From positions 19,101-83,100 of the forward strand of contig CAZXTE010000001.1 in NCBI GenBank assembly GCA_964643545.1: DNA of 64,000 bases. The letters are read 5' to 3'. The number at the start of each line of letters is the position of its first letter. The stretch's first letter is position 1. The notes beneath the pieces were generated by a model. The model had not been told where the DNA came from. It worked only from the letters and a program-made list of their open reading frames with translations, and did not search any database. Of this stretch, positions 1,011-37,828 are shown piece after piece. The stretch comes from an uncultured Candidatus Saccharibacteria bacterium. GTDB lineage: Bacteria > Patescibacteriota > Saccharimonadia > Saccharimonadales > AWTP1-31. A program made the position numbers and the translations under genes.

Positions 1011-1870
1011 AAGGCATAGTACTAGCCGGCGGGTCGGGCACACGACTCTACCCAATCACCCAGGGAGTCAGCAAGCAGCTCATACCCATCTTCGACAAAC
1101 CAATGATCTACTACCCGCTCACTACCCTCATCAATGCAGGAATCCGAGAGATACTCATTATTTCAACGCCCCAGGACCTGCCAAGATTTGAACAACTGCT
1201 TGGAGACGGCTCACGTATCGGGTGTAGCTTTACATATAAAGTACAGGAGACGCCACGTGGGCTTGCGGATGCATACATCGTCGGTGCTGATTTTATAGGG
1301 ACTGATGACGTAGCCATGGTGCTTGGAGACAACATATTCTTCGGTAGCGATTTCGACAAAAAGGTTAAGTCGGCGACCAAAGACCTAGATGGTGGAGTTA
1401 TTTTTGGCCAACAAGTTGCCGATCCCGAACGTTATGGAATCGTAGAATTCGACAAAGAAAACAAGGTTGTTTCGATAGAAGAGAAGCCAACGGAACCCAA
1501 GTCAAACTATGCCATCCCAGGATTATACTTTTTCGATAATGACGTTGTTGAGATTGCCAAGCACGTACAACCCAGCAATCGGGGTGAAATAGAGATTACA
1601 GAAATTCATAACGCTTACCTAAAACAAGGTAAATTAAAAGTAAACTTGTTGGACCGTGGTACTGCCTGGCTCGATACAGGAACATTCAAAAGCCTGAACC
1701 AGGCATCACAGTTTGTGCAGGTCATAGAAGAACGCCAAGGCATTAAGATCGGTTGCATAGAAGAGGCAGCCTACCAGCAAGGCTTCATAGACCGTACCCA
1801 GCTTGAAGAACTCGGCAATGAGCTCCTCAAGAGTGGATATGGCAAATACTTATTAGCGTGTCTTGTATAG
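1007..1870 (+). CDS. rmlA: glucose-1-phosphate thymidylyltransferase
   Basis: MKGIVLAGGSGTRLYPIT nucleotidyltransferase signature at an internal ATG (1007) that overlaps the rmlD stop. RmlA-like along the full length. The upstream 15 codons of the track ORF are judged non-coding. Confidence 0.9.
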   Translation: MKGIVLAGGSGTRLYPITQGVSKQLIPIFDKPMIYYPLTTLINAGIREILIISTPQDLPRFEQLLGDGSRIGCSFTYKVQETPRGLADAYIVGADFIGTDDVAMVLGDNIFFGSDFDKKVKSATKDLDGGVIFGQQVADPERYGIVEFDKENKVVSIEEKPTEPKSNYAIPGLYFFDNDVVEIAKHVQPSNRGEIEITEIHNAYLKQGKLKVNLLDRGTAWLDTGTFKSLNQASQFVQVIEERQGIKIGCIEEAAYQQGFIDRTQLEELGNELLKSGYGKYLLACLV

Positions 1871-2300
1871 CATGGTTAAACTTAAAAACCTGATAACCTT
1901 TCTATACAATCATCATCTTATACGTTATTTATTTGTTGGAGGCACAACCTTCTTCATAGACTTCGGGCTTTTAGTTTTGCTACACGGCAAACTCAATATT
2001 GGTTTAGCAATTGCCGCTTCTACTTCTTACTGGGTATCAATTCTGTACAATTTTAATCTCAACCGAAACTGGACTTTTAGTGCGGCCGAAAGCAAAAAAC
2101 TCCACCAACATATTCTTCCCTACTCTATTCTCTTGTGTTTCAATTATCTCTTCACTGTACTTTTTCTGAGTTTGATTACGAGAGTCATTCATTATCAAGT
2201 GGCTAAAGTTATTGCAGTCGTCGTCCAAGTTGCCTGGACATATCCTATCTATAAATATGTCATATTCGGAACTTCGTCCGACAAAACTAACCCAGCTTAA
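1863..2300 (+). CDS. GtrA-family small membrane protein (polyprenyl-phosphate-sugar translocation family)
   Basis: 145 aa with four hydrophobic helices. It has the GtrA-type motifs RYLFVGGTTFFIDFGLL and YNFNLNRNWTF. Confidence 0.75.
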   Translation: MYSMVKLKNLITFLYNHHLIRYLFVGGTTFFIDFGLLVLLHGKLNIGLAIAASTSYWVSILYNFNLNRNWTFSAAESKKLHQHILPYSILLCFNYLFTVLFLSLITRVIHYQVAKVIAVVVQVAWTYPIYKYVIFGTSSDKTNPA

Positions 2301-3243
2301 GAGAATTCCGAAAGTACTCTATGGTTTTATCTAAGCCTTCATCTAGCTCAATGGTCGGCTCCCAATGAAGCCTTCTTTTAGCTAATTCTATAACGGGTTT
2401 TCTCTGAAGTGGGTCGTCACCTGGAAGGGGCATATACACCATTTTTGAGTCACTACCCACCTTTTTTAGAACTTTTTCCGCTAGCTCTAACATAGTGAAC
2501 TCGGCTGGATTGCCAAGATTTATTGGTGTCACTTCTTCAGACTCAATCAACTTTACGATCCCAGCAACAAGATCATCAACGTAGCAGAAGCTTCGAGTTT
2601 GAGTGCCATCACCATAGACAGTAATAGGCTCTCCTCTTAGGGACTGCACGATAAAGTTTGATACTACTCTCCCGTCGTTTGCATCCATACGTGGGCCATA
2701 CGTATTAAAGAATCTGGCAATGCACGCTGATACCTCTGGGTGCTTTTTGGTATAAGAGTATATGAGGGCTTCGGCATACCGCTTAGACTCGTCGTACATG
2801 GCACGTGGGCCATAACAGTTAACGCTGCCTTTATAGGTCTCCGGTTGTGGGTGTACCTCAGGATCACCATAAACTTCGCTTGTACTTGCATGGAAGAAAC
2901 GTGCCTTATTTTTTTTCGCCAGATCTAGCAGCCTGAGCGTACCTTCAGACCCAACCCTTAGTGTTTCGATGGCAAGTCTTTGGTAATGTGGTGGGCTTGC
3001 GGGTGAAGCCATATTAAGAATAATGTCGTAAGATCTGTCGGTGACACTGTCTGGCAATTCTGACACAATGTCTGCCTCGATAAACGTAAATTGCTTGTTA
3101 TCTATAAGGTGCGTTACATTTTTCTTAGTACCCGTTGAAAGGTTATCCAAGCAGATTACGGAGTCTCCCTTGCCAATAAAGTAGTCGCAAAGATGTGATC
3201 CAAGAAACCCAGCACCACCCGCGATTAAAACCGACCTAGACAT
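2287..3243 (-). CDS. UDP-glucuronate decarboxylase-like NAD-dependent epimerase/dehydratase (SDR)
   Basis: GGAGFLGSHL Rossmann motif and YDESKR catalytic YxxxK. UXS/ArnA-C-like pattern. Start taken at MSRSVLIAGG (3243), 8 nt overlap with the ugd stop. Confidence 0.75.
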   Translation of the reverse strand: MSRSVLIAGGAGFLGSHLCDYFIGKGDSVICLDNLSTGTKKNVTHLIDNKQFTFIEADIVSELPDSVTDRSYDIILNMASPASPPHYQRLAIETLRVGSEGTLRLLDLAKKNKARFFHASTSEVYGDPEVHPQPETYKGSVNCYGPRAMYDESKRYAEALIYSYTKKHPEVSACIARFFNTYGPRMDANDGRVVSNFIVQSLRGEPITVYGDGTQTRSFCYVDDLVAGIVKLIESEEVTPINLGNPAEFTMLELAEKVLKKVGSDSKMVYMPLPGDDPLQRKPVIELAKRRLHWEPTIELDEGLDKTIEYFRNSLKLG

Positions 3244-4561
3244 ATGGGTCCACCAACCGCCTACCAATACTTTGGTAGTAAATTCCATGTTCTTCCATCG
3301 TTACTAAATCATATAGGTTCCTGCCATCAAAAACGACGGGGGCTTTAAGAAGCTCTTTGATCCTATTAAAGTCAGGGCTAAAAAACTCTTTCCAGTTAGT
3401 TGCAATGATCAGTGCATCAGCCCCATCAAGCACTTCGTACTCATCCTCGCCATAGCTAAGCCTTGGGTTGTCTGCCATCGCCTTCTTTACGTTTCCCATT
3501 GCTTGTGGGTCAAAAGCAACGACATTAGCACCCTGGCTCGTCAGTGATTCAATTATGGCAAGTGCTGGTGACTCACGTATATCGTCCGTATTGTCCTTAA
3601 AAGCAAGACCCCACAATGCAAATGTCTTACCCTCAACATTGCCCTCAAAATACTCCATAACTTTTTCTGGAACAACTAGTTTCTGGCGATCATTTGCCCC
3701 CATAACAGCCTCTAGGATACTAAAATCAAAACCACAATCTTCTGCTGTCTTGCTTAATGCCAAGACATCCTTTGGGAAACAGCTGCCACCGTAGCCTGGG
3801 CCTGCGTAAAGAAATTGATCACCTATCCGACTATCGGTACCCATCCCTGCCCGCACCATATCGACATCTGCACCAAGCAATGAACACATACCAGCAATCT
3901 GATTTATAAAACTAATCTTTGTTGCCAAGAAAGCATTCGATGCATACTTAATCATTTCTGCAGATGCTTCATCGGTTACGATAAGACTTTCTGGCTTCCT
4001 TCTGACAAATGGAGCATAAAGTTCTTTCATGACCCTGATCGCTCTGTCAGATTTACTACCTATAACCACTCTTTCAGGTGCAAGAAAGTCTGCAACTGCC
4101 TGCCCTTCTCTCAAGAACTCTGGGTTAGAGACTACATCAAAGTCGACTTTGGCGTTAACGGCAATTGCTTGCCTAACCTTTTCCGCAGTTCCCACAGGCA
4201 CTGTACTCTTGTCTACAATTACCGAGTAGCCCGCAAGCTTCTGCCCGATGTTGTCTGCAACGCCTAGAATATACGACAAGTCTGCGGAGCCATCTTCATC
4301 AGAAGGTGTTGGAAGTGCTAAGAAGATTGCTGCAGCGCCAAGAGCCTCTTCCAGATCGGTTGTAAAAGTTAAACGGCCTTCTTTGACGTTACGCTGAAAT
4401 ATATCGCCCAATCCTGGCTCAAAAATTGGCACTTCTCCAGCCTGCATTCTATGGACTTTTTCTCTATCAATATCTACACAGGTGACTTCGTTGCCCATCT
4501 CAGCGAAACAGGTACCCGTCACCAAACCAACGTATCCGGTTCCTACAACAGCAACTTTCAT
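3236..4561 (-). CDS. ugd: UDP-glucose 6-dehydrogenase
   Basis: 441 aa. MKVAVVGTGYVGLV N-terminus and GGSCFPKD catalytic-Cys motif. Forms an operon with the downstream decarboxylase. Confidence 0.85.
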   Translation of the reverse strand: MKVAVVGTGYVGLVTGTCFAEMGNEVTCVDIDREKVHRMQAGEVPIFEPGLGDIFQRNVKEGRLTFTTDLEEALGAAAIFLALPTPSDEDGSADLSYILGVADNIGQKLAGYSVIVDKSTVPVGTAEKVRQAIAVNAKVDFDVVSNPEFLREGQAVADFLAPERVVIGSKSDRAIRVMKELYAPFVRRKPESLIVTDEASAEMIKYASNAFLATKISFINQIAGMCSLLGADVDMVRAGMGTDSRIGDQFLYAGPGYGGSCFPKDVLALSKTAEDCGFDFSILEAVMGANDRQKLVVPEKVMEYFEGNVEGKTFALWGLAFKDNTDDIRESPALAIIESLTSQGANVVAFDPQAMGNVKKAMADNPRLSYGEDEYEVLDGADALIIATNWKEFFSPDFNRIKELLKAPVVFDGRNLYDLVTMEEHGIYYQSIGRRLVDPYV

Positions 4562-4712
4562 ATGTTACCAACATTTATACCAAAGATAGTGGCGGTTATA
4601 AAGATGTAAACGATGAATGTTTGAATTCTACAACAACGCCATAGCACTAGTTACAATTCTGTTTTGTGGGGCACATTATGTTAGGATAAATGTACAATTA
4701 AACTTATCCGCG

Positions 4713-5441
4713 ATGGCTAAAACAGTAAAACTTTCAATAATTATTCCTTGTTTCAACGAAAAGGAGACAATCTTAACAATACTTCAAGAGATTGAGGACG
4801 TTCATCTAGGCTCTACTAAAAAAGAGATCATCATTATCGATGATGCCTCAACTGATGGTACACGAGAAATATTAACTCGTGTAGCTAGCAAAAACAAAAA
4901 CATAAAACTTCATTTTCAAAGTGTCAACCAAGGAAAAGGGGCTGCTTTGAAAAAAGGACTCCTATCTAGCACTGGGGATGTTGTGATCATCCAAGATGCA
5001 GATCTCGAATATGACCCCCAGGAATATGTACGCTTGCTCTACCCCATAGAGAGAGGCCACGCCGACGTAGTATACGGCTCACGATTTATTGGGGGTGAAC
5101 CACACAGAATTATTTATTTCCGTAATCAAGTTGCCAATAAGTTCTTAACCTGGCTATCGAATATTTTTACGGGTCTAAATCTAACGGACATGGAGACTTG
5201 TTACAAAATGATAGATGGTGAACTTGCGCGTATGCTCGCAAAAGACTTGAAGTCACAAAGATTCGGGTTTGAACCTGAAATTACTGCTCGCATTGCTAAA
5301 AATGGAGCTCGCGTCTATGAGATCGGCATCAGTTACTATGGGCGCAGTAAAGAGGAGGGCAAGAAGATTGGTTTTCGTGATGGCTTTAAAGCTATCTGGG
5401 AGATTGTTTATTTTAACCTGAGCGTACGCAAAAAACGATAA
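4713..5441 (+). CDS. GT2 polyprenyl-phosphate glycosyltransferase (GtrB/Dpm1/CsbB-like)
   Basis: [21 protein letters not shown] and QDADLEYDP (DxD) motifs. Start taken at [11 protein letters not shown] (4713). Confidence 0.8.
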
Positions 5442-7675
5442 ATATACTTTTTCCCCAAGGCCTGTGCTTCTCCAAGATTAAGATAGCCGCCAATCGTTAA
5501 CAATAGACCGGCGGCAAAAAGCCCATAACTTATATTCACATACGGTGGGCTGTACGAAAAATAGGTCTTTGACTTTCCCGCTGGCACAGCGACTGCCTGA
5601 AAGATATCTTTCTCTGTTTGGATGGGCCTACTAATATCGTTTACTTTTACTCGCCAACCCGGAAAAGAAAGCTCGCGTCTTATTATGGTCGTCTCTTTTG
5701 GGCAGTCTGCTTCTACAACATCCCTAGATGTATATGTTAATTTGCAATTTGCAATGCTTTCAAAATAGCCTTTCGAGTTTGGTAGTTCAAAAATCTCAAC
5801 AGTTTCGTCGCGGTGAACAAGTTTTAGCCCAAAACTATTACTAAACTTTTCACTAACCTGACCCCGATCTGTGACTAGATATTTAACGCTCAGATTCTCA
5901 AACTCTTTGATATTCCTTCCAAACTCTTCCAAAGCACTTGGCCCCAATGGATCAACACGTGAATAGCCCGTAAAGACTAGCGCGTTAGCGTTTCGATCTA
6001 ATTTATCTGGTATATATTCTGCCCAGTTCTTGGGTACAGGTAAGTTATTCACGTTGATTGACGCTATCTCATAATATGAACCGTAGTTCGGCGCAATTGG
6101 GTGAAGTGTATAGAATCGACTAACCCCTATGTTTTTTTGCAAAAAACTAACGGGCTTCGTGTTTACTTCTGGGATATTTGGCAACGACAGAAATGGGATC
6201 ATAAACAGTACAGCCGAATCAATCAATAATATGAAACCTATCGATTTACTACGCCATTCTTTTTTCAAGAAACAGGCAACAGCAATGCCCACAATCGTCA
6301 TTCCCCACACCACCGACAATACAGCCCAGGAATGATGAGACGAATAATCACCTAGCTGCCGAACTAGATTTCGCGCATAAAGTGCCAAGGAAGCCAAAAA
6401 AAATACAGCAAAGCCAGTTGCTCCGATTATTCTTTTCTTAGTAATCTCTGCTTTTTTGATTGCCTCTAGCCCAAACATGGCTAGAATAATTAAAGCCAGG
6501 CTTAGTGCAGGTATAGAATATCTGTAAAAAGCTATTAACTTCATTCCGGGCAGGACATTAACCATATACTCAACTGGCTTAAATCCGTATATTTTCAAAA
6601 TTATAACCAGCGAGAATGTAGAAAGGTAAAGTTTGTGAGCCAATCGTCTTCTGGAAAATAAACCAAGGAGTGCGGATGTAATAAGAGGCATGGAGATATA
6701 CCCCCCCACATTTGACCAAAATAGAAATATAGCAAGTGCCTTCCCTGTGTCAGAAAAACCAAAAATTGGGCCATAAATATACGGCATAAATAGAGCCGGC
6801 AACGTCTTTATATTGAGTGATACATGGGCATACCCACTGTCCGAGTGGCCACCAGTAGTTGCGTGAGGCAAATACCCCAGGAATGGAACAAGAATAGGAG
6901 CTGACAATAGCAAGCCCAGAATACTAGCAAATAACAGTTTGTAGATAAAAGGCTTCCAGGCACTCCTCTTTATTTGAATCATACGAACAACACCCCAGCC
7001 ATATGCAAATAGTGCGTTAATGTAAGCTGTTTCTGGGAAACCGGAGTACAACGAAAGACTCAGCGCTAACGCAATAACCAGCCATCCACCCCGTCGTTTT
7101 TTCTCAGCTCGGATAAGTGCTACTTCGATGCCCAGTAGCAGCATAGGTAAAAAAGCTATTGGATTAAAAGCAGCATTGGTTAGCCAGGCAAATGCCCCAT
7201 TCAATGCAAAAAGAATTCCACCAATTATAGCTATACTCGAGCTGAGTTTTATTTTTCTCAGTAATAGATAAGTAGTAAACCCAGCAATAAGTTGCAAAAA
7301 AAAGTGCATAATTATGAATCCATTTCCAAAGTACAGCAATAGTACAAGGGGGAAGAACGCTGCTGACTGCATACCCCCAGCCAGTGGTGAACCAATGCCC
7401 TCATAATGGTTCCAGTAGGGTACATCCCCCTGCAGCCAACTCTGGGCCGCCCTGCGGCCAAGCGCTTGAGAAGTAAAACCGTCGTTTGGGTCAATAGTGC
7501 TCTGGCCCCCAACAGGTCCGGGGGTAATACTTGTTGCCAACCCTGAGCGTTGTAGAATGGGGTTCCTGCTTTTGCCCATTATCAGTGGGGTCAAGTTTAT
7601 TAGAAGGATAGCAAGGAATACTACCAAGAATGGCTTTGTGTGTTCTGATTGAAATAATCGCTTAATTCTTGTCAT
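5408..7675 (-). CDS. large polytopic membrane protein, YfhO-like GT-C glycosyltransferase candidate
   Basis: About 755 aa. It has more than 12 N-terminal TM helices, a soluble C-terminal domain of about 200 aa and a final TM (YfhO-like topology). It is convergent with, and overlaps, the GtrB-like gene. Confidence 0.55.
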
Positions 7676-7820
7676 ATTTTCCCCAATATTATGCCACAGG
7701 TACGTCAACATACATTCATTATGAGTCACTTTTGTGCAACGGTGTCGGTATTCGGATATGAAGCTAGTTACGCTATAATGGTCTATGTTATAAAAATGGA
7801 ATGGAGAGGTTTTTTATAAG

Positions 7821-8867
7821 ATGAAGGTTTTAATAACCGGTTCTGCTGGTCTGATTGGCTCAGAAGCTGCAAAATTCTTTGCTGAAAAGGGTTTTGAGGT
7901 TGTGGGCATTGACAACAATATGCGTAGTTACTTCTTTGGTGAGGAAGCAAGTACCGAGTGGAATCGAAAGAAAATTGAAACGCAGCTCAATAAAGCCTAC
8001 ACGCACTATAACGTCGATATCCGTGATAACGATGCGGTGGGCAAGATTTTTAAGAAACATAAATTTGATCTAATTATTCATACCGCCGCTCAACCCTCTC
8101 ACGACTGGGCAGCACGCGAGCCGTTTACTGATTTTACGGTTAACGCTAACGGCACACTTGTAATGTTAGAGAACATGCGGCAATTCTGTCCTGAAGCAGT
8201 GTTTATTTTTACCTCTACCAATAAAGTATACGGGGACACACCCAACAACCTTCCTTTGATCGAACTAGATAAGCGCTGGGAACTCCCCGAAGATCACAAG
8301 TTTTACAAGGGCATAGACGAAACAATGAGTATTGACGATTGTAAGCACTCAATTTTTGGTGCATCTAAAGTTGCGGCTGACATCATGGTTCAGGAGTATG
8401 GGAAATACTTTGGCTTCAAGACTGCAGTCTTCCGTGGTGGCTGCCTAACCGGACCATCCCATTCTGGCGCAGAGCTGCATGGCTTTTTAGCTTATCTAAT
8501 TAAGTGTATTGCGAGTGGCAAAAAGTACACGATCTTCGGCTACAAAGGCAAGCAAGTACGTGACAATATTCACTCTCACGATCTCGTAAATGCCTTTTAC
8601 CATGTGTATAAAAAACCTCGTTCTGGCGAAGTCTACAATATGGGCGGTAGTCGTAACTCCAACATATCCATGCTAGAAGCCATCGAAAAAATAGAGAAGT
8701 TATTGGGGAAAAAGGCAAACTACGAACTTTCAGACGAAAATCGTATCGGTGATCATATCTGGTATATATCAGACGTCTCTAAATTCCAAAAACACTACCC
8801 GAACTGGAAGTTCGAATACGATACAGATGCCATCCTAAAAGAGATGTGCGCAGCGGTGCGAGTCTAA
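7821..8867 (+). CDS. NAD-dependent epimerase/dehydratase, CDP-paratose 2-epimerase-like SDR
   Basis: [11 protein letters not shown] Rossmann motif, FGASKVAAD YxxxK-type motif and [23 protein letters not shown] sits upstream of the ATG. Confidence 0.75.
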
Positions 8868-9934: not shown

Positions 9935-9937
9935 CGC

Positions 9938-10681: not shown

Positions 10682-10780
10682 TTTCTGAGTTTATCAACAA
10701 TTCGTTGTATTTCCTTCTATATGCCAGAACGCTTTTTTAAGCTACTATACCTATTAAGATAATTATGGAGATGTTGCTTG

Positions 10781-11443
10781 ATGAAAGATTACGTACTTTC
10801 CATTTACGCTGATCGCTTTGATAAGGACGAGCAAAAACGTAAGGTAATGTGGCAGGTTCTCTGCAATGACTACTTTCAAAAGTTCATTGGCAAGAAAGAT
10901 GTCGTTCTTGACCTTGCTGCAGGATACTGTGAGTTTATTAATAATATAAAGTGCGGGAAGAAAATTGCTGTCGACCTAAATATGAAAACCAAGCAGAAGG
11001 CTGCAAAAAATGTAACAGTATACCGAGCGCTCAGTACCGCCCTGCCTAAAAAACTAACCGGTTCGGTGGATGTAGTATTTACCAGTAACTTCTTCGAGCA
11101 TTTAGATAGCAAAAATGAACTAATTGATACTCTAAAAGAGATACACCGAGTACTGAAACCAGGTGGTAAACTTATGGTTTTACAGCCCAATATTCGACTC
11201 GTCGGTAATCAGTATTGGGACTACGTTGACCACACATTGCCATTAACTGAAAAGAGTCTTGAAGAAGCTTTTCACTTAACTGATTTTGAACAATGGTTTC
11301 GTAAAGTAAGGTTTTTGCCATTTACAGCAAACTCACGTATGCCGGCGTATCCATTTCTAATTCGTCTGTATCTTCGACTTCCATTGGCTCAGTTTATTAT
11401 GGGTAAACAAACTTTTGTTATAGCTAAAAAAGTTAAGGCTTAG
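10781..11443 (+). CDS. class I SAM-dependent methyltransferase
   Basis: Motif I VLDLAAGYCEF and post-I/II LKPGGKLMVLQPN. The ATG at 10781 is preferred over the TTG at 10778, with GGAG 10 nt upstream. Confidence 0.7.
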   Translation: MKDYVLSIYADRFDKDEQKRKVMWQVLCNDYFQKFIGKKDVVLDLAAGYCEFINNIKCGKKIAVDLNMKTKQKAAKNVTVYRALSTALPKKLTGSVDVVFTSNFFEHLDSKNELIDTLKEIHRVLKPGGKLMVLQPNIRLVGNQYWDYVDHTLPLTEKSLEEAFHLTDFEQWFRKVRFLPFTANSRMPAYPFLIRLYLRLPLAQFIMGKQTFVIAKKVKA

Positions 11444-12681
11444 TGCTTATTTAGACAAGTCAACCAATCACTACTCGGATTTACTTCGAGACAAACTCGC
11501 TCGCCAGAGTGAGCATTGTTGAATTTCTGAACTGAATTTGAAAAGTTTGTATACGATTTTTGTGGATAAGAGAAATCACTCGGTATTCCCAATAGAACCA
11601 TGCACAAGAGCAAGCCAACTGCTAATGACCTTGCATACTTATTAGCATACGAAAAGAGGAATAGTATTGCCGAAAAGAGGCCAATCATTGGAAGCCAAAA
11701 ATAACGATTTCCCCCTCCACTAACCATCGACGTCCACTGGGGTACGGTGTTGCTAGCCTGGGGTTTTATGAGCGCTACAAAGAAAATCAGCCAAGTGAAG
11801 ATTATGATCATCTTATACTTATACGGTGCTTTGATGAGAACAAAGATTAATAATGCTAATGTAACCGCACCAAGCACCGCAAACCAACCTTGATTGGCTA
11901 AAGCGTATTTGTTAATAGTCTCCATGCCTACCAGCAGTCCGCCAGTAATTCTACTACCTATTATAGCCAGAAACTTGACTGGGCTCGCGCCCAATCCCTG
12001 CGTAAATCTGGCTTCGGGCTTAGACAGAAGATACACAATTGTCTGCACGACCGACGTAACAGAATATACAGCCAGGTAGGGAAAGCCGACTTTCCCCCTC
12101 TTCCACAACCAGAAAGCGATTGGCAGGACTATGATGGAAAAAGGACCGGTTAGACCAGATATAAAAAGTACGCTGGTGTCAAAGACTTGCCAAAGTTTCG
12201 ACTCAGTTTTGCCAGAGATTAAAATCATGAACACGATCAACGCTAGGTGCCAGTTCATGTTGGTCAGGTTGGCGTTAACCTCAAAACTATTGGGCATCAG
12301 CAGATAGAAGGCTGCAAATAGTGACGAGTTTCGGGTTGAGCCAGTAAGCTTTTTGAATCGGTCGGTAAACAACAAAACAACAGGTAAAATCTGGACTACT
12401 GTTGCCGATAACACAAAAAATAATGGTGCTAGCTTCAACGGCAAGACCATGGATGTCGATGCGACCAGACGCATGCCGACTTGTAGGCTGCTGGCGTAGG
12501 GTTTAAAGATTGACAGAAGAATACCGTCGTTATAGGCCTGGCCGAACCACTTTATACCATCCTCTCCCCAGAATTGGGCATGCCTAAAAACGCTTGGATC
12601 GCGGAGGTAGACAAGCAAAAAACTGCCCAAAAATACTCCCAGAAGGAGCAGTATCTTGTTCTTAGTTAAATAATTCCGCAT
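11440..12681 (-). CDS. polytopic membrane protein, putative GT-C-type glycosyltransferase/polymerase (paralog of 16561..17853)
   Basis: 413 aa with about 10 TM helices. AQFWGEDG acidic motif after TM1. Clear homology to the 430-aa protein at 16561..17853. Conserved tail C-x3-NP-x3-W-x2-CL-x-K. Confidence 0.55.
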   Translation of the reverse strand: MRNYLTKNKILLLLGVFLGSFLLVYLRDPSVFRHAQFWGEDGIKWFGQAYNDGILLSIFKPYASSLQVGMRLVASTSMVLPLKLAPLFFVLSATVVQILPVVLLFTDRFKKLTGSTRNSSLFAAFYLLMPNSFEVNANLTNMNWHLALIVFMILISGKTESKLWQVFDTSVLFISGLTGPFSIIVLPIAFWLWKRGKVGFPYLAVYSVTSVVQTIVYLLSKPEARFTQGLGASPVKFLAIIGSRITGGLLVGMETINKYALANQGWFAVLGAVTLALLIFVLIKAPYKYKMIIIFTWLIFFVALIKPQASNTVPQWTSMVSGGGNRYFWLPMIGLFSAILFLFSYANKYARSLAVGLLLCMVLLGIPSDFSYPQKSYTNFSNSVQKFNNAHSGERVCLEVNPSSDWLTCLNKH

Positions 12682-12706
12682 TTGTGGATAGTATATAATA
12701 GTTCTC

Positions 12707-14329
12707 GTGCTTACAATAGATTGGTGGCCGCTACTAAGTGTAGCGCTTTATATTTCTTCATTTTTTAGTCTAAGTCTTTTTTTTGGCCTCAAAGCCCATC
12801 AGAAAAAACTCATTCCCGATAACTTTTTGTACATGGGTGGCCTAGCCATTTGTCTAGTCATCTGCTATTCTCAGTTTTACATTTTTGCCATTAGCCCAAA
12901 GCTTGGTCACGTCACGACTATTCTATTTATTCTCGCAGGCTTAGCAGTTTTGCCATTCCTGTTACGAACGCTTCTGATTCAAAAAACGATTTGGCAAATA
13001 ACTAAGAAGTACTTCTTTGTACCTTTTTTGATAATAGTTCTCCTCACTTTTCTGTATTCGTATTTCTTATTCGGCTGCACCACCAGCAAATACACTATTG
13101 ACCAATGGGGTGAAGTTCAAAACCCCGCCTTTTGTCACATATCGAAACTACCTATAGATAATGCTCTGCCCTACATCTACAGCGAGAAGGTTAAGAACAA
13201 TGATGCTAAATCATTGGTGATTGATTGGAGCATAGCCGACCGGCCACCGCTGCAAATTGCTACAACTTTGCCAATTTCTGATTTAGCCAAAACCACTGGC
13301 AGACCACAGCGTTACGCTATGTATTACGTCTTTTCCATCACATTACAGCTAAGCTGGATTGCGGTCATTTGGGGCATTTTAACAAAGCTTCTCCAGCGAA
13401 AATTACATGTCTGGGGTTCTATGTTGGCCCTGTCTGCTACGGGGTTCTTATACATTAACTCCGTTTTTGTGTGGCCAAAACTGATCTCAGCCAGTTTATT
13501 CGTATTTGGCGCCTTCATACTTTTTGAAACTAGCACCAAGAGACGAAACTTATTTACTTACAAGTATCTTACCCTAGCGGCAATCTCGTTCGCGCTGGCA
13601 TTACTCTCGCATACGGGCGTGTTGTTTACGTTAATAGTCCTTGCGCCGCTGGTTGCTTTTGACCTTTGGCGTAGTCAAAAAATAGACCAGAAGTTATTGA
13701 AGAGTCTCATAGTACCGACTGCTGCTGCCCTCATCTTGCTAGTACCATGGCAAATCACCAAAAATCATTTAATTTCTCATGATCGACTCATCAAGTGGCA
13801 CTTCGCAGGTGTAATCTCTGCGGAGGACCAGCGGGGAACTCTCAAAACTATAGTTGACGAGTACAAGAAGTTGCCCCTCGCAGCCTGGGCACACAATAAA
13901 CAGAAAAATATTGAAGCACTCTTTACGGGGGGCGTAGGCAACAGTTGCGACTCTGCAATTCGCAGGACCCTTGACGATTGCCACGTAGCCGTATGGAGAG
14001 ATCGAGAGTTCTTCAGCTCGTTCTATTCTTTAGGATTGTTTTCCATTGGATTCCCCGTAATTATCTGGCTTGGCCTTAAGAAGAAGTTGGACAGGCTTGA
14101 TATTATGCTACTTTTACTTACAGTACTGTACTTTATAGTTTGGGTGCTGTTGATGTTTATCCCGGGAGCAACCGTGATACATCAAGGGTCGTATGCTTCT
14201 GCTCTGTTTCTATTTATTTTGCTCATCAAGAATCTATCGCTAATGCCCGACGCAGCGTTTATAGCTTTTGTCGTTCTACAGCTCACCATATTTGGGTTAG
14301 CCTGGCTTCGACCTTTCGGCTTTTTGTAA
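12707..14329 (+). CDS. polytopic membrane protein, ArnT/PMT-like GT-C glycosyltransferase candidate
   Basis: 540 aa with many TM helices. The ADRPPLQ motif resembles the D-x-PPL loop of the GT39/GT83 families. The GTG start is uncertain. Confidence 0.5.
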   Translation: MLTIDWWPLLSVALYISSFFSLSLFFGLKAHQKKLIPDNFLYMGGLAICLVICYSQFYIFAISPKLGHVTTILFILAGLAVLPFLLRTLLIQKTIWQITKKYFFVPFLIIVLLTFLYSYFLFGCTTSKYTIDQWGEVQNPAFCHISKLPIDNALPYIYSEKVKNNDAKSLVIDWSIADRPPLQIATTLPISDLAKTTGRPQRYAMYYVFSITLQLSWIAVIWGILTKLLQRKLHVWGSMLALSATGFLYINSVFVWPKLISASLFVFGAFILFETSTKRRNLFTYKYLTLAAISFALALLSHTGVLFTLIVLAPLVAFDLWRSQKIDQKLLKSLIVPTAAALILLVPWQITKNHLISHDRLIKWHFAGVISAEDQRGTLKTIVDEYKKLPLAAWAHNKQKNIEALFTGGVGNSCDSAIRRTLDDCHVAVWRDREFFSSFYSLGLFSIGFPVIIWLGLKKKLDRLDIMLLLLTVLYFIVWVLLMFIPGATVIHQGSYASALFLFILLIKNLSLMPDAAFIAFVVLQLTIFGLAWLRPFGFL

Positions 14330-14367
14330 TTTACAATTCTAGTTTAAAATGGTAAACTATAACTGTT

Positions 14368-14892
14368 ATGGTTAAAAATAAAAAGGTTAGAAAGACTAAG
14401 ATAATTGCACTCACCGCCGCTGTGCTGCTTCTAGCTGGCGGCTCTGCCTTTGCCTACGTAAAAACCAGACATCCAGCAGCCCCGGCGCCTCTGCCGGTCG
14501 GTGGAGTCAACCTTGATAAGCCAACTGCAGAAGAAATAAAAGAAACTGAAGAATTCAAGAAGCAGCAAGCAAAAGCGACGACTAACCCGCCCACCCAAAC
14601 GGCTTCTAACAACAATGCCAACGTTGTCATAACGACCATAACCACAACCGAAGCTAGGGGCTATGTATCGGGCACAGTTGAAGAAGGTGGCACCTGCACG
14701 CTAACGCTCACAAGAGGTACGGCAAAAGTAACAGCGAGCTCAACTGGCATACTCGATGTCAATAAAACGACCTGCTCCCAAATCACAATCGGCCCGGGTC
14801 AACTAAGCTCTGGTGAATGGGATGCAGTACTCAGTTACACTTCTCCAAGCATAAGTGGATCTTCTGCGGTCCAGAAACTAAAGGTACCCTGA
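14368..14892 (+). CDS. signal-anchored secreted protein, unknown function
   Basis: 174 aa. N-terminal basic region plus TM (KIIALTAAVLLLAGGSAFAYV), a P/T-rich linker and a small two-Cys beta-rich C-domain. Confidence 0.6.
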   Translation: MVKNKKVRKTKIIALTAAVLLLAGGSAFAYVKTRHPAAPAPLPVGGVNLDKPTAEEIKETEEFKKQQAKATTNPPTQTASNNNANVVITTITTTEARGYVSGTVEEGGTCTLTLTRGTAKVTASSTGILDVNKTTCSQITIGPGQLSSGEWDAVLSYTSPSISGSSAVQKLKVP

Positions 14893-14895
14893 GCT

Positions 14896-16560
14896 ATGTT
14901 GAGACCATTAAAGAGATTTGGTGCATTTATCAGCTTGCTAACCGCAGCGGTACTAATCGTGTTTGGACTTCAGCCAGCCTACGCAGCATCTGGCAACACC
15001 TTCAAAGCTGATCGTATTATTGATGACGCCATATTTTTTAACACAGCCCAGTTGTCCGTTACAGACATACAGAATTTCCTAAATAGTAAGGTCCCAACGT
15101 GCGACACCAATCATACCGGCAGCGGAAGCAACCAACCGCCGTTTACCTGTCTCAAGGACTACTCACAAACCATCAGCGATAGGGCGGCAGACCAGTATTG
15201 TACTGGTGCCGTAAGCGCTGGCACAAAGTCGTCGGCACAGATTATTAAAGATGTCGCAAATGCCTGTGGAATCAATGCTGCTGTACTAATAGTATTGCTC
15301 CAAAAAGAACAGTCCTTAATTACTGATACGTGGCCATGGGCATCACAGTACGAAAAAGCTACCGGTTACTATTGCCCCGATGACCCATCTAGGCCGGGCT
15401 GGTGTGACCCGGAATATGCAGGCTTTTTCAACCAAGTGTGGTATGCTGCCAGACAATTCCAGAGGTACGTGAAACAGCCGGGTTCTTTTAACTTTGCTGT
15501 TGGAAGAGCAAGCAGTGTACTCTTCCAGGCAAACCGCCCTAGTTGTGGTGGCACAACCCTTACTATGCAAACCCGAGCAACCGCAGCACTTTACAACTAT
15601 ACACCGTACCAGCCTAGTCAGGCTGCTCTAGACTATCTCTACGGCGTAGCCCCTGGTGACCCTAACACACCCGGCACGCCAGCTTATTGTGCAGCTTATG
15701 GGAACAGGAATTTCTGGCGACTCTTCAATGATTGGTTTGGGCCAACTACTTCAGATAACAATACGGATGTTATAAGTTTTGTTCGGCTTAACCATGCATC
15801 AGGGAACGTTGAGGTAGTAGGCTATACCTCAATAAGCGAGTACTCTTACCCCGCTCGGCATAACTTCTCTAGCTATCCCTCCGTACCAGCCGATGGCAAT
15901 GTGATACCCCTATTCTGGCCTAACGGTGACCTCGTATTCGTGAGACTTAATCATGCCTCAGGAAATGTCGAAGTGGTGAGCTATAGTGCGAATAGCGGAT
16001 ATAAACAACTTGTTAATATTGCAATAACTGGCTACCCCTCCGTGCCTGGCGATGGCAATGTTATCCCAATGTTTAAACCTAACGGGGATTTAAGTTTCAT
16101 TCGACTAAACCACAGTTCAGGAAATGTCGAAGTGGTGAGCTATGGCCCCGGAAGTAATTATAGAAGTCTCACCAGAATTCAAAATTCTAGCTATCCCTCC
16201 GTACCAGCCGATGGCAATGTGATACCCCTATTCTGGCCTAACGGTGACCTCGTATTCGTGAGACTTAATCATGCCTCAGGAAATGTCGAAGTGGTGAGCT
16301 ATAGTGCGAATAGCGGATATAAACAACTTGTTAATATTGCAATAACTGGCTACCCCTCCGTGCCTGGCGATGGCAATGTTATCCCAATGTTTAAACCTAA
16401 CGGGGATTTAAGTTTCATTCGACTAAACCACAGTTCAGGAAATGTCGAAGTAGCTACCTACAGCGCCTCTAGCAACTACAAGCAACTTATTGATTTACGC
16501 CTGACTGGTTACCCTAATGTAGCTAATGATGGTGCCGTAATTCCGCTATTCACCAGGTAG
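14896..16560 (+). CDS. secreted protein: conserved N-domain plus five ~53-aa beta-propeller-type repeats
   Basis: Signal peptide (..LQPAYA/AS). N-domain carries ..SAQIIKDVANACGINAAVLIVLLQKEQSLITD... It is followed by 5 repeats of the form F(V/I)RLNH(A/S)SGNVEV..Y....Y.......GYP.VP.DGNVIP.F.PNGDL. Confidence 0.7.
   Translation: MLRPLKRFGAFISLLTAAVLIVFGLQPAYAASGNTFKADRIIDDAIFFNTAQLSVTDIQNFLNSKVPTCDTNHTGSGSNQPPFTCLKDYSQTISDRAADQYCTGAVSAGTKSSAQIIKDVANACGINAAVLIVLLQKEQSLITDTWPWASQYEKATGYYCPDDPSRPGWCDPEYAGFFNQVWYAARQFQRYVKQPGSFNFAVGRASSVLFQANRPSCGGTTLTMQTRATAALYNYTPYQPSQAALDYLYGVAPGDPNTPGTPAYCAAYGNRNFWRLFNDWFGPTTSDNNTDVISFVRLNHASGNVEVVGYTSISEYSYPARHNFSSYPSVPADGNVIPLFWPNGDLVFVRLNHASGNVEVVSYSANSGYKQLVNIAITGYPSVPGDGNVIPMFKPNGDLSFIRLNHSSGNVEVVSYGPGSNYRSLTRIQNSSYPSVPADGNVIPLFWPNGDLVFVRLNHASGNVEVVSYSANSGYKQLVNIAITGYPSVPGDGNVIPMFKPNGDLSFIRLNHSSGNVEVATYSASSNYKQLIDLRLTGYPNVANDGAVIPLFTR
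15871..16452. repeat. 318-bp-period tandem duplication with two 264-bp copies that read as identical (15871-16134 and 16189-16452) inside the propeller gene
   Basis: Direct reading of the nucleotide lines shows both copies starting agctatccctccgtaccagccgatggc and running to ggaaatgtcgaagt. Each copy corresponds to a two-blade unit of 106 aa. Confidence 0.9.
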
Positions 16561-17853
16561 TTAGTTCTTCTTCAGGCACGTTTTCCACGCTTCGTCGGGA
16601 TTTATATCAAAGCAATATTGTTGCCCAGGACGTAAGGTCGAGAACTCGTTAGCTTGGCCTCTGAAGTTAAACTTCTTCAACTCTTTTACTCTAAAGTAGA
16701 ATGGGAAAAATAGCACGTATAAAGCCACCAAAGCTGAGGCAATCTTGCCCATGTTATTCCTGGTAAGTGCCGCAAAGTAGACCAGTATCAGCAGCCAGCA
16801 GAAGATTGGGATGAAAAAGTATCGTGCGCCGAAGGAATTTAGTTGTAACATATCCCAGAACTGCACAATCGGAACAGTTTGAGCTCGTACGAATGTCGAA
16901 GCATAAATAAGAGACCCGAATAATATCACTGCTCGCATATAGATGTTGGCCTTGATGAAGGCGTAGATCGTCATAATAATAGCGAACATACCCAACATAA
17001 ACATCTGGGGCGACCCTGCTATCTCTTTGGTGATTATTTTCTCGCCTGCGACTGGCAAAGCAAAGAACCTCATACCGGTAATCTTAATCGGTTTACTATA
17101 GTTATTTATTAGTTCTCTTTTCTGAGATACCAGACTGGCAGTTCTTTGTTGGGGGGCCTGTACGTAGACAGCTATCTGAATGAGCGCACAAGCAACTATA
17201 GCAGCAGCCTTAATCCAGTGCATTCTATTTTTGCTCTTTTGAGCAGTAATTAAGTATGCAGCCGTTAGTGCTAGGAAGGGAGCAAACGGCCCACTCAACC
17301 CAGACACAATAAGCACAGTAATATCAAATACCAACCATTTCTTCTGCGTTTTTGGGCCCCTAACTAGTACCAAAATTGCGGCAGCGGCCAAGAACCAAAT
17401 AGTATTTGTAAAATTTCCATAAATCTCAGCAATGCCCGGAATAAGTAGGTATAGAAAAGTGAATGTCATCTTTGATCGCACACTGAATTTTTTTATAAGG
17501 GTGCTATCCGACCAGAATATAAACAATGGTAGGACCATGACCAGAATGGCCACTAAATTTGCCGCCGCTGGGGCGAATCTTAGGGGTACCAACAGCAGCG
17601 GTAGAGCTACCAATCGAGGGAAGAAGGGCAAGATTCCAGAATAAGTCTTGAAGATACTGTAGCCGCCACGCATATAGGCATCTCTATAAAATACGGCGAA
17701 GTCTTCTGCCCAAAACTGAGCATTAAAAAGCAGCTCCGGCCTTCGTAATACGATTACGCCAACGCCAATCAAACACACTACTACCGCTTTTTTCATATCT
17801 GAAAGTACGACAAATTTACGCCAAATGTTAGCTGCCAGCGACTTTATTTCCAT
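16561..17853 (-). CDS. polytopic membrane protein, putative GT-C-type glycosyltransferase/polymerase (paralog of 11440..12681)
   Basis: 430 aa. AQFWAEDF, SGLSGPF and GARYFFIPI match AQFWGEDG, SGLTGPF and GNRYFWLPM in the paralog. The tail is YCFDINPDEAWKTCLKKN. Confidence 0.55.
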   Translation of the reverse strand: MEIKSLAANIWRKFVVLSDMKKAVVVCLIGVGVIVLRRPELLFNAQFWAEDFAVFYRDAYMRGGYSIFKTYSGILPFFPRLVALPLLLVPLRFAPAAANLVAILVMVLPLFIFWSDSTLIKKFSVRSKMTFTFLYLLIPGIAEIYGNFTNTIWFLAAAAILVLVRGPKTQKKWLVFDITVLIVSGLSGPFAPFLALTAAYLITAQKSKNRMHWIKAAAIVACALIQIAVYVQAPQQRTASLVSQKRELINNYSKPIKITGMRFFALPVAGEKIITKEIAGSPQMFMLGMFAIIMTIYAFIKANIYMRAVILFGSLIYASTFVRAQTVPIVQFWDMLQLNSFGARYFFIPIFCWLLILVYFAALTRNNMGKIASALVALYVLFFPFYFRVKELKKFNFRGQANEFSTLRPGQQYCFDINPDEAWKTCLKKN

Positions 17854-22744: not shown

Positions 22745-22783
22745 GGGTTACCAGCCTTTTATTATAAGATAGGTACTAGAAAC

Positions 22784-23818: not shown

Positions 23819-24226
23819 TTATATATTAAAGGTCTTCTTGGTCTTGTATGGTTCTAGCTCTAACGAGTCCTGAATTTCAGTATATACAAACGGCATCTCT
23901 TCTCGGGCGAGCGCCTGCATTGTTTTATCAATCATTTCGTATAATTTTGACGTTGGCACATCTTTTAGATCTCGTTTTTCAACTTCTTCTAGCAACTTCT
24001 CAAGTCTCTTGCCAAGAACCTTGATTCGATGTTGTTTACCAATCTTGTATTGTTCTTGCAAATTGTCTAAATACAGACCCTGTTGGTTCTGGATCTCATT
24101 TTCATATTGTTTTGCCCAATTAAACAAAGTTGTCTTACTGACGTCGAGTTTCTTTGCAATATTTGCATAGCTTTCATTGCTCGCACGTAACTCAATAAAT
24201 TTCTCATGTTTCTCTGGCTTACTCAT
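23819..24226 (-). CDS. small helix-turn-helix protein with coiled-coil tail (transposase/terminase-small-subunit-like HTH)
   Basis: SYANIAKKLDVSKTTLFNWAKQY is a classic HTH, followed by a charged helical region. The ATG at 24226 is preceded by GGGGAG at 5-nt spacing. Confidence 0.5.
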   Translation of the reverse strand: MSKPEKHEKFIELRASNESYANIAKKLDVSKTTLFNWAKQYENEIQNQQGLYLDNLQEQYKIGKQHRIKVLGKRLEKLLEEVEKRDLKDVPTSKLYEMIDKTMQALAREEMPFVYTEIQDSLELEPYKTKKTFNI

Positions 24227-37821: not shown

Positions 37822-37828
37822 GGTGTTA

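Follow-up and report, generated by a model that had tools for sequence, protein, structure and literature searches.

A probable glycan-decoration gene cluster adjoins the replication origin of a tiny-genome Saccharimonadales (CPR) bacterium. As judged in silico, this compact gene set most likely attaches extra sugars, outside the membrane, to a surface polysaccharide or protein, and the region is probably the decoration half of a surface-glycan locus of about 27 kb. In the window (the whole 64,000-nucleotide stretch of DNA that was analysed), sequence, fold and synteny identify two cytoplasmic GT2 enzymes of the Dol-P/Und-P-sugar synthase clade without membrane helices, one GtrA protein and four polytopic GT-C-fold proteins, namely one YfhO, one ArnT-like protein (the ADRPPLQ protein) and two WxED paralogs. 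The mechanism, multi-component transmembrane glycosylation, is already known; two of its enzyme families here, WxED and ADRPPLQ, are without annotation. The elements named in a preliminary description of this DNA (GtrA, two GT2 enzymes, four polytopic proteins and sugar genes) are all present at or near where it placed them, and the E-values and invariant motifs of the cluster elements are far beyond chance. The genes are listed below.

147-1010, + strand: rmlD (PF04321, E 1.6e-61)
962-1870, + strand: rmlA (PF00483, E 1e-71)
1863-2300, + strand: GtrA-family small membrane protein (PF04138, E 1.5e-17, profile positions 1-117 of 117)
2287-3288, - strand: uxs (human UXS1, E 2.6e-99)
3236-4561, - strand: ugd (three-domain Pfam match; TuaD, E 2.6e-161)
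4713-5441, + strand: GT2a, polyprenyl-phosphate glycosyltransferase (DPMS/ArnC/GtrB clade), no TM helix (PF00535, E 9.6e-32)
5408-7729, - strand: YfhO-family GT-C glycosyltransferase (PF09586, E 7.9e-18)
7821-8867 and 8846-9934, + strand: two SDR epimerase/dehydratase-like genes (CDP-tyvelose 2-epimerase)
9938-10681, + strand: GT2b, second polyprenyl-phosphate glycosyltransferase, no TM helix (PF00535, E 3.8e-24)
10778-11443, + strand: MT1, class I SAM methyltransferase (PF08241, E 1.1e-10)
11440-12681, - strand: WxED-1, 413 aa, GT-C-fold membrane protein of an unannotated family
12707-14329, + strand: ADRPPLQ protein, 540 aa, GT-C-fold membrane protein
14368-16560, + strand: two secreted/anchored proteins (synteny in related loci L001-L006)
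16561-17853, - strand: WxED-2, 430 aa, paralog of WxED-1, last gene of a strand block of wzm, wzt, methyltransferase and double GT2
17858-19756, - strand: double-domain GT2 (Pfam)
19753-20742, - strand: methyltransferase (Pfam)
20739-21944, - strand: Wzt with Wzt_C domain (Pfam)
21944-22744, - strand: Wzm (Pfam)
22736-23794, + strand: GT2 (Pfam, NCBIfam)
23819-24232, - strand: transposase HTH fragment (Pfam, NCBIfam)
24296-25618, - strand: Wzy_C/O-antigen-ligase-like protein (Pfam, NCBIfam)
25645-26757, + strand: GT4 (Pfam, NCBIfam)

A Firmicute or teichoic-acid context was rejected: close homologs of these genes are named Saccharimonadales or Saccharibacteria, and the window showed no genes for teichoic acids. 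The analogy with Firmicute CsbB/GtrB systems holds as a model but not as a context. An LPS context was also set aside, no LPS-specific family being among the Pfam matches across the window. Saccharibacteria are generally regarded as single-membrane organisms. Neither a priming phosphoglycosyltransferase nor an LCP ligase was found in the window. The ORFs of at least 120 aa scanned outside the locus include neither another GtrA nor a Wzx, MATE or additional GT-C protein, and inside it the genes are too tightly packed to leave room for an extra gene. Gene pairs here are convergent or divergent, not operonic, and two synthases accompany four GT-C enzymes, all within 16 kb. The preliminary description had read this as several independent lipid-linked decorations; with just two donors between them, the four GT-C enzymes do not amount to four independent systems. 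Its term 'unusually dense' is relative, since Lactococcus lactis and Bacillus subtilis also have three GT-A/GT-C pairs each, but scattered round the genome (PMC8035078).

The GT2, GtrA, YfhO and sugar-gene assignments were borne out by Pfam, PDB and NCBIfam matches. On all three counts GT2a and GT2b fall in the clade of GT-A-fold polyprenyl-phosphate glycosyltransferases. Their best solved relatives are the Pyrococcus Dol-P-Man synthase (E 1e-16 for GT2a and 8e-18 for GT2b), ArnC and GtrB; for GT2b the match to DPMS (E 8.3e-18) spans residues 1-221, and GtrB is also matched. The top NCBIfam models of the two enzymes, which are 28% identical to each other, are AglJ, PgfS, archaeal Dol-P-hexose transferase, ArnC and PpgS. 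The GT2a ORF covers 4617-5441; its orthologs are 243-244 aa long, so the start at 4713 proposed earlier is likely the true one. The label 'GtrB-like' fits the clade of the synthases but not their architecture. Classical GtrB and CsbB have a C-terminal TM anchor of one or two helices, and no hydrophobic segment is present in GT2b or the 242-aa GT2a, which match the helix-less GacI/WpsA variant (PMC8035078, PMC10821137). In a hydrophobic-moment scan of the GT2 enzymes, amphipathic helices at the C-terminus did not stand out.

By synteny, the partner of GT2a is YfhO, and those of GT2b are the ADRPPLQ and WxED proteins. GT2a and YfhO are convergent with the 34-nt overlap described earlier (exactly 5408-5441), and the convergent pair is kept in four independent loci (L001, L002, L005 and L006). 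The PF09586 match of the YfhO-like protein scores 64.7 bits against a gathering cutoff of 28.5 and covers only profile positions 85-450 of 835; the true start lies somewhere between 7675 and 7729, and a sequence search for a solved homolog found none. In L002 and L003, GT2b lies 5 nt upstream of an ADRPPLQ-family gene. The SDR2-GT2b pair is kept in the cyanobacterium Waterburya (55% identity for SDR2 and 61% for GT2b), which also carries MT1, WxED and the double GT2. GtrA, matched over the full-length profile, is the sole such gene of the locus. In relatives this small candidate flippase is syntenic with GT2 genes, either between two of them (L001) or after rmlA (L002).

The nearby sugar genes had been put forward as suppliers of these decorations. 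The genes are there, but the dTDP-rhamnose of rmlD and rmlA is probably for the polymer backbone, feeding cytoplasmic glycosyltransferases and not lipid-linked donors. The SDR at 2287-3288 can be taken as a genuine UDP-glucuronate decarboxylase because its UXS1 match is far above the next best (only 1.6e-38). With ugd, and divergent from GT2a, it would provide a route from UDP-Glc through UDP-GlcA to UDP-xylose. Xylose is not a conserved donor, since L002 has a different SDR (27% identity) at the UXS position. The two SDRs directly upstream of GT2b, both with CDP-tyvelose 2-epimerase as best PDB match (E 3e-39 and 5.6e-36), would make or modify the sugar of GT2b.

Searches of Pfam, NCBIfam and PDB gave nothing meaningful for the WxED and ADRPPLQ proteins, whether the query was a single sequence or a 38-sequence profile. 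The case for a GT-C fold comes from structure: WxED-1 and the ADRPPLQ protein are similar to solved GT-C enzymes and well apart from other membrane folds, at a sequence identity of only 7-13%. For WxED the Foldseek values are marginal (E 1.4e-3, TM 0.37-0.44). The proteins have the character of polytopic GT-C-fold transferases whose extracytoplasmic loop carries conserved acidic residues, and none of the polytopic proteins aligned to transporters or other non-GT-C families, the outcome that had been named as counting against the GT-C reading. The two families have no detectable kinship with each other (hhalign probability 0.4%). The ADRPPLQ protein is closest in fold to ArnT and also resembles ALG12, and its D178-R-P-P-L182 motif is invariant in 38/38 homologs. 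Its sequence does not place it in the PMT_2/ArnT-like family (PF13231; GT39/GT83): it has no Pfam match at E <= 0.01, and only one of the 38 homologs matches PF13231, at 2.8e-5. The 38-sequence profile found no GT-C protein in the PDB, the best hit being AlkD at E 0.59, which is noise.

WxED-1 and WxED-2 are 28% identical over their full length (E 7e-40), with the motifs FWGEDG and FWAEDF, and WxED-2 retains 13/13 family-invariant residues. Both have about 45 residues beyond the last membrane helix. Clustered at 50% identity, the family falls into about 8,260 sequence clusters. A scan with a narrowed alignment found relatives on genome contigs of six phyla: Saccharibacteria, Acidobacteriota, Cyanobacteria, Actinomycetota, Dormibacterota and Pseudomonadota. 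In three phyla WxED genes adjoin a double GT2 and Wzm/Wzt, and those of Luteimonas and Spirulina are solitary, away from glycan genes. Ten long family proteins were scanned for fusions, and the sole informative case has an added WecG/TagA domain. An invariant Y327 follows a near-invariant R326 in the family, which recalls R349-Y350 of the GT136 enzyme ORF12 and is a lead only; the catalytic set of ORF12 is D31/E34/H106/R349 (PMC11127046).

Neighbours of WxED recur as well. MT1 is convergent with WxED-1 (4-nt overlap), an arrangement present in the window, L001 and L006, and the position of WxED-2 after the double GT2 is repeated in L006. MT1 orthologs (39-48% identity) adjoin GT2b-like genes in Waterburya and Terriglobales, and genes adjoining WxED homologs in the same two groups share 42-43% identity with the double GT2. 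One Terriglobales genome groups rmlABC-WxED, a second WxED, a Ugd-like gene, an SDR, MT1, a GT2b-like gene and an ADRPPLQ-family gene (32% identity, E 3e-46), all next to Wzm/Wzt and a double GT2. Divergent from the WxED gene of Waterburya lies a gene for a 587-aa protein, which was rejected as an ADRPPLQ homolog and has no Pfam match. Tentatively, the WxED proteins may be a large unannotated GT-C family (a candidate new CAZy family) that travels with a helix-less GT2, a methyltransferase and an SDR and installs a sugar, possibly methylated, on ABC-exported rhamnose-type polymers; four GT-C enzymes with two donors would then build branched or oligomeric structures.

The likeliest acceptor is an exported rhamnose-containing polymer, because the locus runs on into Wzm/Wzt, the double GT2, a methyltransferase and the rml pathway. 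The exporter is an O-antigen-like ABC transporter (PF01061, E 7.6e-20; PF00005, E 4e-22; PF14524, E 9.1e-15). The alternative acceptor is the Ser/Thr-rich anchored protein encoded beside the ADRPPLQ gene. Two proteins always follow this gene in L001-L006. One (14368-14892, 174 aa) combines an N-terminal anchor with a linker rich in Thr, Ser and Asn and a small domain that contains Cys; the other (14896-16560, 554 aa) carries a signal peptide, an N-domain that is conserved in more than 3,000 homologs of variable C-terminus, and repeats of about 47 aa. They are candidate acceptors or glycan-binding wall proteins. It is rather doubtful that the ADRPPLQ enzyme, and perhaps YfhO, acts on a protein and not a polysaccharide, as in streptococcal GtrB/PgtC2 and Pgf: the adjacency fits wall proteins with affinity for the decorated glycan just as well, the window's copy has a linker of only moderate Thr content, and in Terriglobales and Waterburya the same enzyme families are tied to rml and Wzm/Wzt, not to such proteins. 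Some of the four GT-C proteins might polymerise or transfer oligosaccharides outside the membrane instead of single sugars, after the model of lactococcal WpsH/WpsJ, mycobacterial Emb/Aft/Mpt or an en-bloc oligosaccharyltransferase acting on a Wzm/Wzt-exported chain. The ratio of two synthases to four GT-C proteins, the place of WxED-2 at the end of the export block, the recurrent double GT2 and Wzm/Wzt neighbours of WxED, the WecG/TagA fusion, and AglB, STT3, PglB, AftA, AftB and AftD among the fold matches all agree with this, as does the finding that lactococcal GT-C enzymes polymerise and attach Und-P-linked oligosaccharides (PMC10821137). It is nevertheless unlikely: no Wzx-type oligosaccharide flippase was found in the locus, and the WxED proteins are small, their short tail past the last helix leaving them without the large periplasmic domain of the oligosaccharyltransferases and Emb proteins among the fold matches, which are 793-1,087 aa long.

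GtrA is proposed to be a flippase for Und-P-sugars and/or a membrane partner of the helix-less synthases; the roles are not mutually exclusive. That it is mainly a partner or activator, like GacJ/WpsB or the fused GtrA-like domain of archaeal DPMS, with flipping done by another protein, is possible but not the favoured view. The lack of a predicted TM helix in either GT2, the Pfam family name (GtrA/DPMS transmembrane domain) and the gene order in L001 suit this role, and GacI (PMC8035078) and WpsA/WpsB (PMC10821137) are earlier examples of a helix-less GT2 that works with a small membrane activator. GacJ and WpsB, however, have three helices and are not described as GtrA-family (PMC8035078, PMC10821137), and a single GtrA-type flippase serving three GT-A/GT-C pairs is genetically established in L. 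lactis (PMC8035078). It is very improbable that the WxED proteins are not glycosyltransferases at all, but transporters, acyltransferases or structural proteins that only resemble the GT-C bundle, even though they have no sequence link to any characterised family, their Foldseek statistics are weak and some homologs are genomic orphans.

Several characterised systems resemble the locus in part. In L. lactis, CsdAB, CsdCD and CsdEF work with CflA, so that, as here, several GT-A/GT-C pairs go with one GtrA-type protein; acceptors include rhamnan from an ABC-transporter pathway, and the GT-C protein CsdB has no Pfam domain, like some GT-C partners here (PMC8035078). The Csd pairs are 1:1 in three dispersed loci, whereas here the ratio is two to four in one short region, the synthases are helix-less and the organism is a CPR bacterium. 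For GacI/GacJ/GacK/GacL of S. pyogenes and lactococcal WpsA/WpsB/WpsG/WpsJ, a DPMS-related helix-less GT2 and a small membrane protein make the Und-P-sugar, and a GT-C enzyme then decorates ABC-exported polyrhamnose (PMC8035078, PMC10821137). These use a Wzx-type flippase and a three-helix small protein; here only a GtrA-family protein, and no Wzx, was found. CsbB-GtcA-YfhO of Bacillus, Listeria and Staphylococcus combines, as here, a YfhO-family GT-C with a GtrB-type GT2 and GtrA, and the parallel with Pgf lies in an epimerase, two GT-C enzymes and acceptor proteins encoded in the cluster, the last of which are only candidates here (PMC5836110, PMC11092751). Acceptors of CsbB-GtcA-YfhO, GtrB-PgtC2 and Pgf are teichoic acids or S/T-rich proteins of Firmicutes, unlike the window with its partial YfhO match and its lack of teichoic-acid genes. 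The Arn pathway of Gram-negatives comprises Ugd, ArnA, ArnC, ArnE/F and ArnT. The present locus has no aminotransferase, formyltransferase or deformylase, its SDR is a true UXS (UDP-xylose), and its acceptor is not lipid A. Citrobacter youngae O1/O2 provides the parallel of a previously unclassified GT-C family, GT136, that decorates an ABC-exported O antigen after polymerisation, with an SDR epimerase diversifying the lipid-linked donor (PMC11127046). Its UbiA-type PRPP-dependent synthase and MATE-family flippase differ from the components here, and its GT-C enzyme (compared with WxED and ADRPPLQ by description only) has a length of about 650 aa and ends in a carbohydrate-binding module (PMC11127046).

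Donor and acceptor identities, like all functions given here, are computational predictions. In the mechanism proposed, GT2a would put a UDP-GlcA-derived sugar, probably xylose in view of the adjacent Ugd/UXS, on undecaprenyl phosphate, and GT2b would put on the lipid a second sugar, the product of the two tyvelose-epimerase-like SDRs, to which MT1 possibly adds a methyl group. GtrA would flip the lipid-linked sugars and/or tether the synthases to the membrane. Outside, YfhO would use the donor of GT2a, and the ADRPPLQ protein and WxED paralogs that of GT2b. The acceptor would be a rhamnose-containing polymer that the double GT2, GT2 and GT4 assemble in the cytoplasm, perhaps with a cap added by a methyltransferase, and that Wzm/Wzt export. 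Counting against this picture are the low sequence identities of the structural matches and the marginal Foldseek values of WxED, the missing priming phosphoglycosyltransferase and LCP ligase, the solitary WxED genes of Luteimonas and Spirulina, the non-operonic layout of the gene pairs and the different SDR of L002.

Like other CPR bacteria, Saccharibacteria spend their lives attached to bacterial hosts. In the literature collection searched, no paper on the surface glycans of Saccharibacteria and other CPR bacteria themselves turned up. The locus offers a concrete parts list for a decorated surface polymer. Presence or absence of genes among close relatives, MT1 with WxED-1 on the one hand and WxED-2 on the other, looks like serotype variation and would produce it. 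The glycosylation mechanism itself is not new. Two new GT-C families without a Pfam model have been identified, and WxED comes with its thousands of clusters, candidate catalytic residues and a recurrent neighbourhood; both are useful for annotation and CAZy-type classification, whatever the organism. If the tentative reading of WxED is true, four GT-C enzymes in Saccharibacteria would form such branched or oligomeric structures where the cell surface touches the host cell.

The glycan locus, as mapped by ORF calling and by Pfam and NCBIfam scans, is tightly packed and takes up the first ~26.8 kb of the window. The source is a Saccharimonadales bacterium (Candidatus Saccharimonadota, CPR): close homologs bear this name, and one member of the DnaA cluster is annotated 'Candidatus Saccharibacteria bacterium'. 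All seven elements named in the preliminary description (one GtrA protein, two GtrB-like synthases and four polytopic proteins of GT-C type) are real.

Genes of the glycan locus and the adjoining region, in order
First two genes of the locus: rmlD and rmlA
1863-2300: GtrA protein (PF04138)
Between GtrA and GT2a, minus strand: uxs and ugd
4713-5441: GT2a, a small GT2
5408-7729, minus strand: YfhO-like protein (YfhO Pfam family)
Between the YfhO-like gene and GT2b: two SDR genes, the second termed SDR2
9938-10681: GT2b, a small GT2
Between GT2b and WxED-1: MT1, a class I SAM methyltransferase
11440-12681, minus strand: WxED-1, polytopic
12707-14329: ADRPPLQ protein, polytopic
14368-14892, plus strand: 174-aa anchored protein, downstream of the ADRPPLQ gene
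14896-16560, plus strand: 554-aa secreted protein
16561-17853, minus strand: WxED-2, paralog of WxED-1
After WxED-2, minus strand, in this order: double-domain GT2, methyltransferase, Wzt with a Wzt_C domain, Wzm
Locus end: GT2 (at 22736), transposase HTH fragment, Wzy_C/O-antigen-ligase-like protein, GT4, FG-GAP protein
28360-34355, beyond the locus: jag/khpB, yidC, dnaA, dnaN, recF

Because jag, yidC, dnaA, dnaN and recF come next, the glycan locus abuts the chromosomal replication origin region. The Wzy_C-like protein (PF04932, E 7.7e-14; top NCBIfam model IctB-family) could be a ligase attaching the exported polymer, or a pilin/protein O-oligosaccharyltransferase. A PF01527 transposase-type HTH fragment lies between this gene and the GT2 gene (23819-25618, minus strand). 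Neither a priming transferase nor an LCP ligase was seen in Pfam scans of the window. Farther on, the minus strand within 35401-49844 encodes a GH3 glycosidase, next a protein of 1,248 aa that combines GDSL-lipase with C-terminal VanY domains, and after it a type IV secretion-like block. This block encodes a VirB4/TraG-type ATPase, a PrgI-family protein and three proteins (1,098, 323 and 290 aa) that match nothing in Pfam. Four tRNA genes (54833-55814 and 62219-62305) are the sole Rfam matches in the window; near them are a VKOR homolog and a YkuD L,D-transpeptidase with a PG_binding_4 domain (57957-60439).

The GtrA protein matches PF04138 across the entire profile (E 1.5e-17). GT2a and GT2b, initially called GtrB-like, do belong to the polyprenyl-phosphate glycosyltransferase clade but lack the classical GtrB membrane anchor. 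Among solved structures they come closest to Pyrococcus Dol-P-Man synthase, ArnC and Synechocystis GtrB; in NCBIfam, the AglJ, PgfS, archaeal Dol-P-hexose transferase, ArnC and PpgS models score best. TuaG, MftF or rhamnosyltransferase models are matched instead by the double GT2 and by the GT2 at 22736. A polymer-building type was rejected for GT2a and GT2b, since solved relatives and NCBIfam models both place them in the polyprenyl-phosphate clade. The two are only 28% identical and therefore represent distinct lineages. No transmembrane helix is predicted in GT2b, and in GT2a one occurs solely in a 32-residue N-terminal extension absent from orthologs. The YfhO-like protein scores 64.7 bits against a Pfam threshold of 28.5, and its gene converges on GT2a with an overlap of exactly 34 nt, as had been read. 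The SDR beside ugd, earlier termed UXS-like, is indeed a UDP-glucuronate decarboxylase (human UXS1, E 2.6e-99; next match 1.6e-38), and the two SDRs preceding GT2b are nearest to CDP-tyvelose 2-epimerase.

The remaining polytopic proteins are less easily placed. WxED-1 and WxED-2 are paralogs (28% identity, E 7e-40), and DRPPL is invariant across 38 homologs of the 540-aa ADRPPLQ protein. Searches of Pfam, NCBIfam and PDB sequences gave no match for either family, and WxED falls into none of the sequence families described there; the two families show no relation to each other at profile level. PMT_2 was reached by only one of the 38 ADRPPLQ homologs, at 2.8e-5. The ADRPPLQ protein itself failed the PMT_2 sequence test, yet ArnT is its nearest fold. 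AlphaFold2 models based on alignments of 38 (ADRPPLQ) and 27 (WxED) homologs are confident, with pLDDT 93/pTM 0.94 for the ADRPPLQ protein and pLDDT 92/pTM 0.91 for WxED-1. Foldseek matched WxED-1 to STT3, ArnT, ALG9, PglB and PimE at probability 0.99-1.00 and TM ~0.4, with E-values of only ~1e-3, whereas MFS transporters gave TM ~0.15; sequence identity in the structural matches is 7-13%. The possibility, raised at the outset, that these proteins might align to transporters or other non-GT-C folds is not borne out: the matches are GT-C and not transporter-like. In the models, conserved acidic residues are predicted at GT-C-typical places. E40 (≥90% conserved) and D41 (invariant) of WxED-1 start the first helix in the loop after TM1, and in the ADRPPLQ protein the long loop that follows TM4 holds D151 and D178-R179. 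On the opposite side the short loops carry positive charge, consistent with the acidic loops facing outward. WxED-2 retains 13 of 13 family-invariant residues. All four polytopic proteins are best read as predicted GT-C enzymes.

Related loci were fetched and compared with the window by tblastn. The convergent GT2a/YfhO pair is also found in L001, L002 and L006. MT1 and WxED-1 are convergent neighbours in the window, L001 and L006, and in the first two they overlap by 4 nt. The window and L006 also share a WxED-2 gene placed after the double GT2. Both WxED genes and MT1 are absent from L002 and L003, where the ADRPPLQ homolog begins 5 nt after GT2b. In L001 the GtrA gene sits between the two GT2 genes. 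L002 (Saccharimonadales, GCA_964500595.1; 15876-19385) carries formyltransferase and DegT aminotransferase genes, a formamido-sugar route, and another SDR replaces UXS. MT1/WxED-1 and WxED-2 are present or absent among close relatives, and such differences within one order look like O-antigen serotype-like diversification.

An exhaustive profile search for the WxED family gave 8,260 clusters at 50% identity (E ≤ 1e-3), 2,441 of them at E ≤ 1e-30; none of those tested had a Pfam match across the domain. The gene association also extends beyond the phylum. A Terriglobales contig (L011) has Wzt, Wzm, the double GT2 (42% identity) and rmlA-B-C with a WxED gene directly behind rmlC. Also on this contig are another WxED paralog, genes for an NDP-sugar dehydrogenase and an SDR, MT1 (48%), a GT2b-like gene and a member of the ADRPPLQ family (32% identity, E 3e-46) that keeps the SDRPPLQ and FVWPKL motifs. 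A Waterburya contig has MT1 (39%), SDR2 (55%), GT2b (61%), a WxED gene and a double GT2 (43%), and on Dormibacterota contigs WxED occurs together with a GT2b-like gene, a dehydrogenase and an SDR. The WxED homologs of Luteimonas and Spirulina are orphans. In the 676-aa representative P0120, a WecG/TagA (GT26) domain is naturally fused to the WxED GT-C domain, which ties the family to undecaprenyl-linked wall polymer assembly; in other long members (P0092, P0172, P0191, P0219) the extensions gave no Pfam match. At the ADRPPLQ position of the Waterburya sp. locus (L009, 6111-7874, minus strand) is a 587-aa ORF, divergent from the WxED homolog and without a Pfam match. It was rejected as an ADRPPLQ homolog (hhalign probability 0.5%) and may be another unannotated membrane glycosyltransferase.

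A four-step mechanism can be proposed from homology, fold and synteny. A rhamnose-containing backbone would be built on undecaprenyl diphosphate by GT4, GT2 and the double GT2 from dTDP-rhamnose, perhaps capped by the wzt-adjacent methyltransferase, and exported by Wzm/Wzt. In the E. coli O8/O9a prototypes, Wzt_C recognises the chain-terminating residue. GT2a would transfer a UDP-GlcA-derived sugar to undecaprenyl phosphate, in the window strain probably xylose via Ugd and UXS. GT2b would load a second sugar, which the two tyvelose-epimerase-like SDRs would supply or modify and cytoplasmic MT1 may methylate; alternatively, an SDR could conceivably act on the lipid-linked sugar, as it does in Citrobacter (PMC11127046). 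Both donors would be flipped by the single GtrA protein, as CflA serves three lactococcal pairs (PMC8035078), and GtrA may also tether the helix-less synthases, a role known for GacJ and WpsB (PMC8035078, PMC10821137). YfhO would then take the donor from GT2a, and the ADRPPLQ protein and WxED paralogs that of GT2b, at differing positions or acceptors.

Alternatively, the ADRPPLQ enzyme could act on a protein. In the loci compared, its gene always has those of a small anchored protein and a ~550-aa secreted protein behind it. The small proteins (window 14368-14892, plus strand; L001 9418-9978; L002 11656-12159; L006 5592-6155) share a layout in which an N-terminal anchor leads into a Ser/Thr/Asn-rich linker and then a conserved, Cys-containing C-terminal domain. 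Their constant place immediately behind the ADRPPLQ GT-C gene makes them candidate O-glycosylation acceptors. PMTs are among the fold matches, and streptococcal GtrB/PgtC2 and Pgf glycosylate exactly such linkers, the Pgf cluster encoding its own acceptors (PMC11092751). The 554-aa protein has a Cys-rich N-terminal domain of ~270 aa (>3,000 homologs, no Pfam model), fused in other CPR proteins to CHAP, FG-GAP, B_lectin, ChW, LGFP or DUF5648 C-termini, and here followed by five ~47-aa repeats (FVRLNHASGNVEVV...YPSVPxDGNVIPxF); it might act on the wall or bind glycans.

Four GT-C enzymes would share two donors, and some of them may polymerise, or transfer oligosaccharides, instead of adding sugars singly; WpsH/WpsJ and the mycobacterial Emb/Aft enzymes are precedents (PMC10821137). 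The fold, the invariant residues and the surrounding genes make a non-enzymatic role for WxED unlikely.

In its predicted mode of action the system resembles the Arn pathway and the multi-component transmembrane glycosylation systems covered by the review PMC8035078. It has the sequence and fold features that define the latter except the classical GtrB anchor, and in this it follows the GacI/WpsA variant. No paper on Saccharibacteria's own surface glycans was found in the literature searched, the one relevant paper dealing with the host's rhamnose polysaccharide. The preliminary finding was correct and well read, and the locus is of moderate interest, chiefly as a resource for annotation and hypotheses. 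The machinery is of a known kind; the GT-C families are new, and the two-donor, four-transferase layout in this CPR genome is unusually compact.
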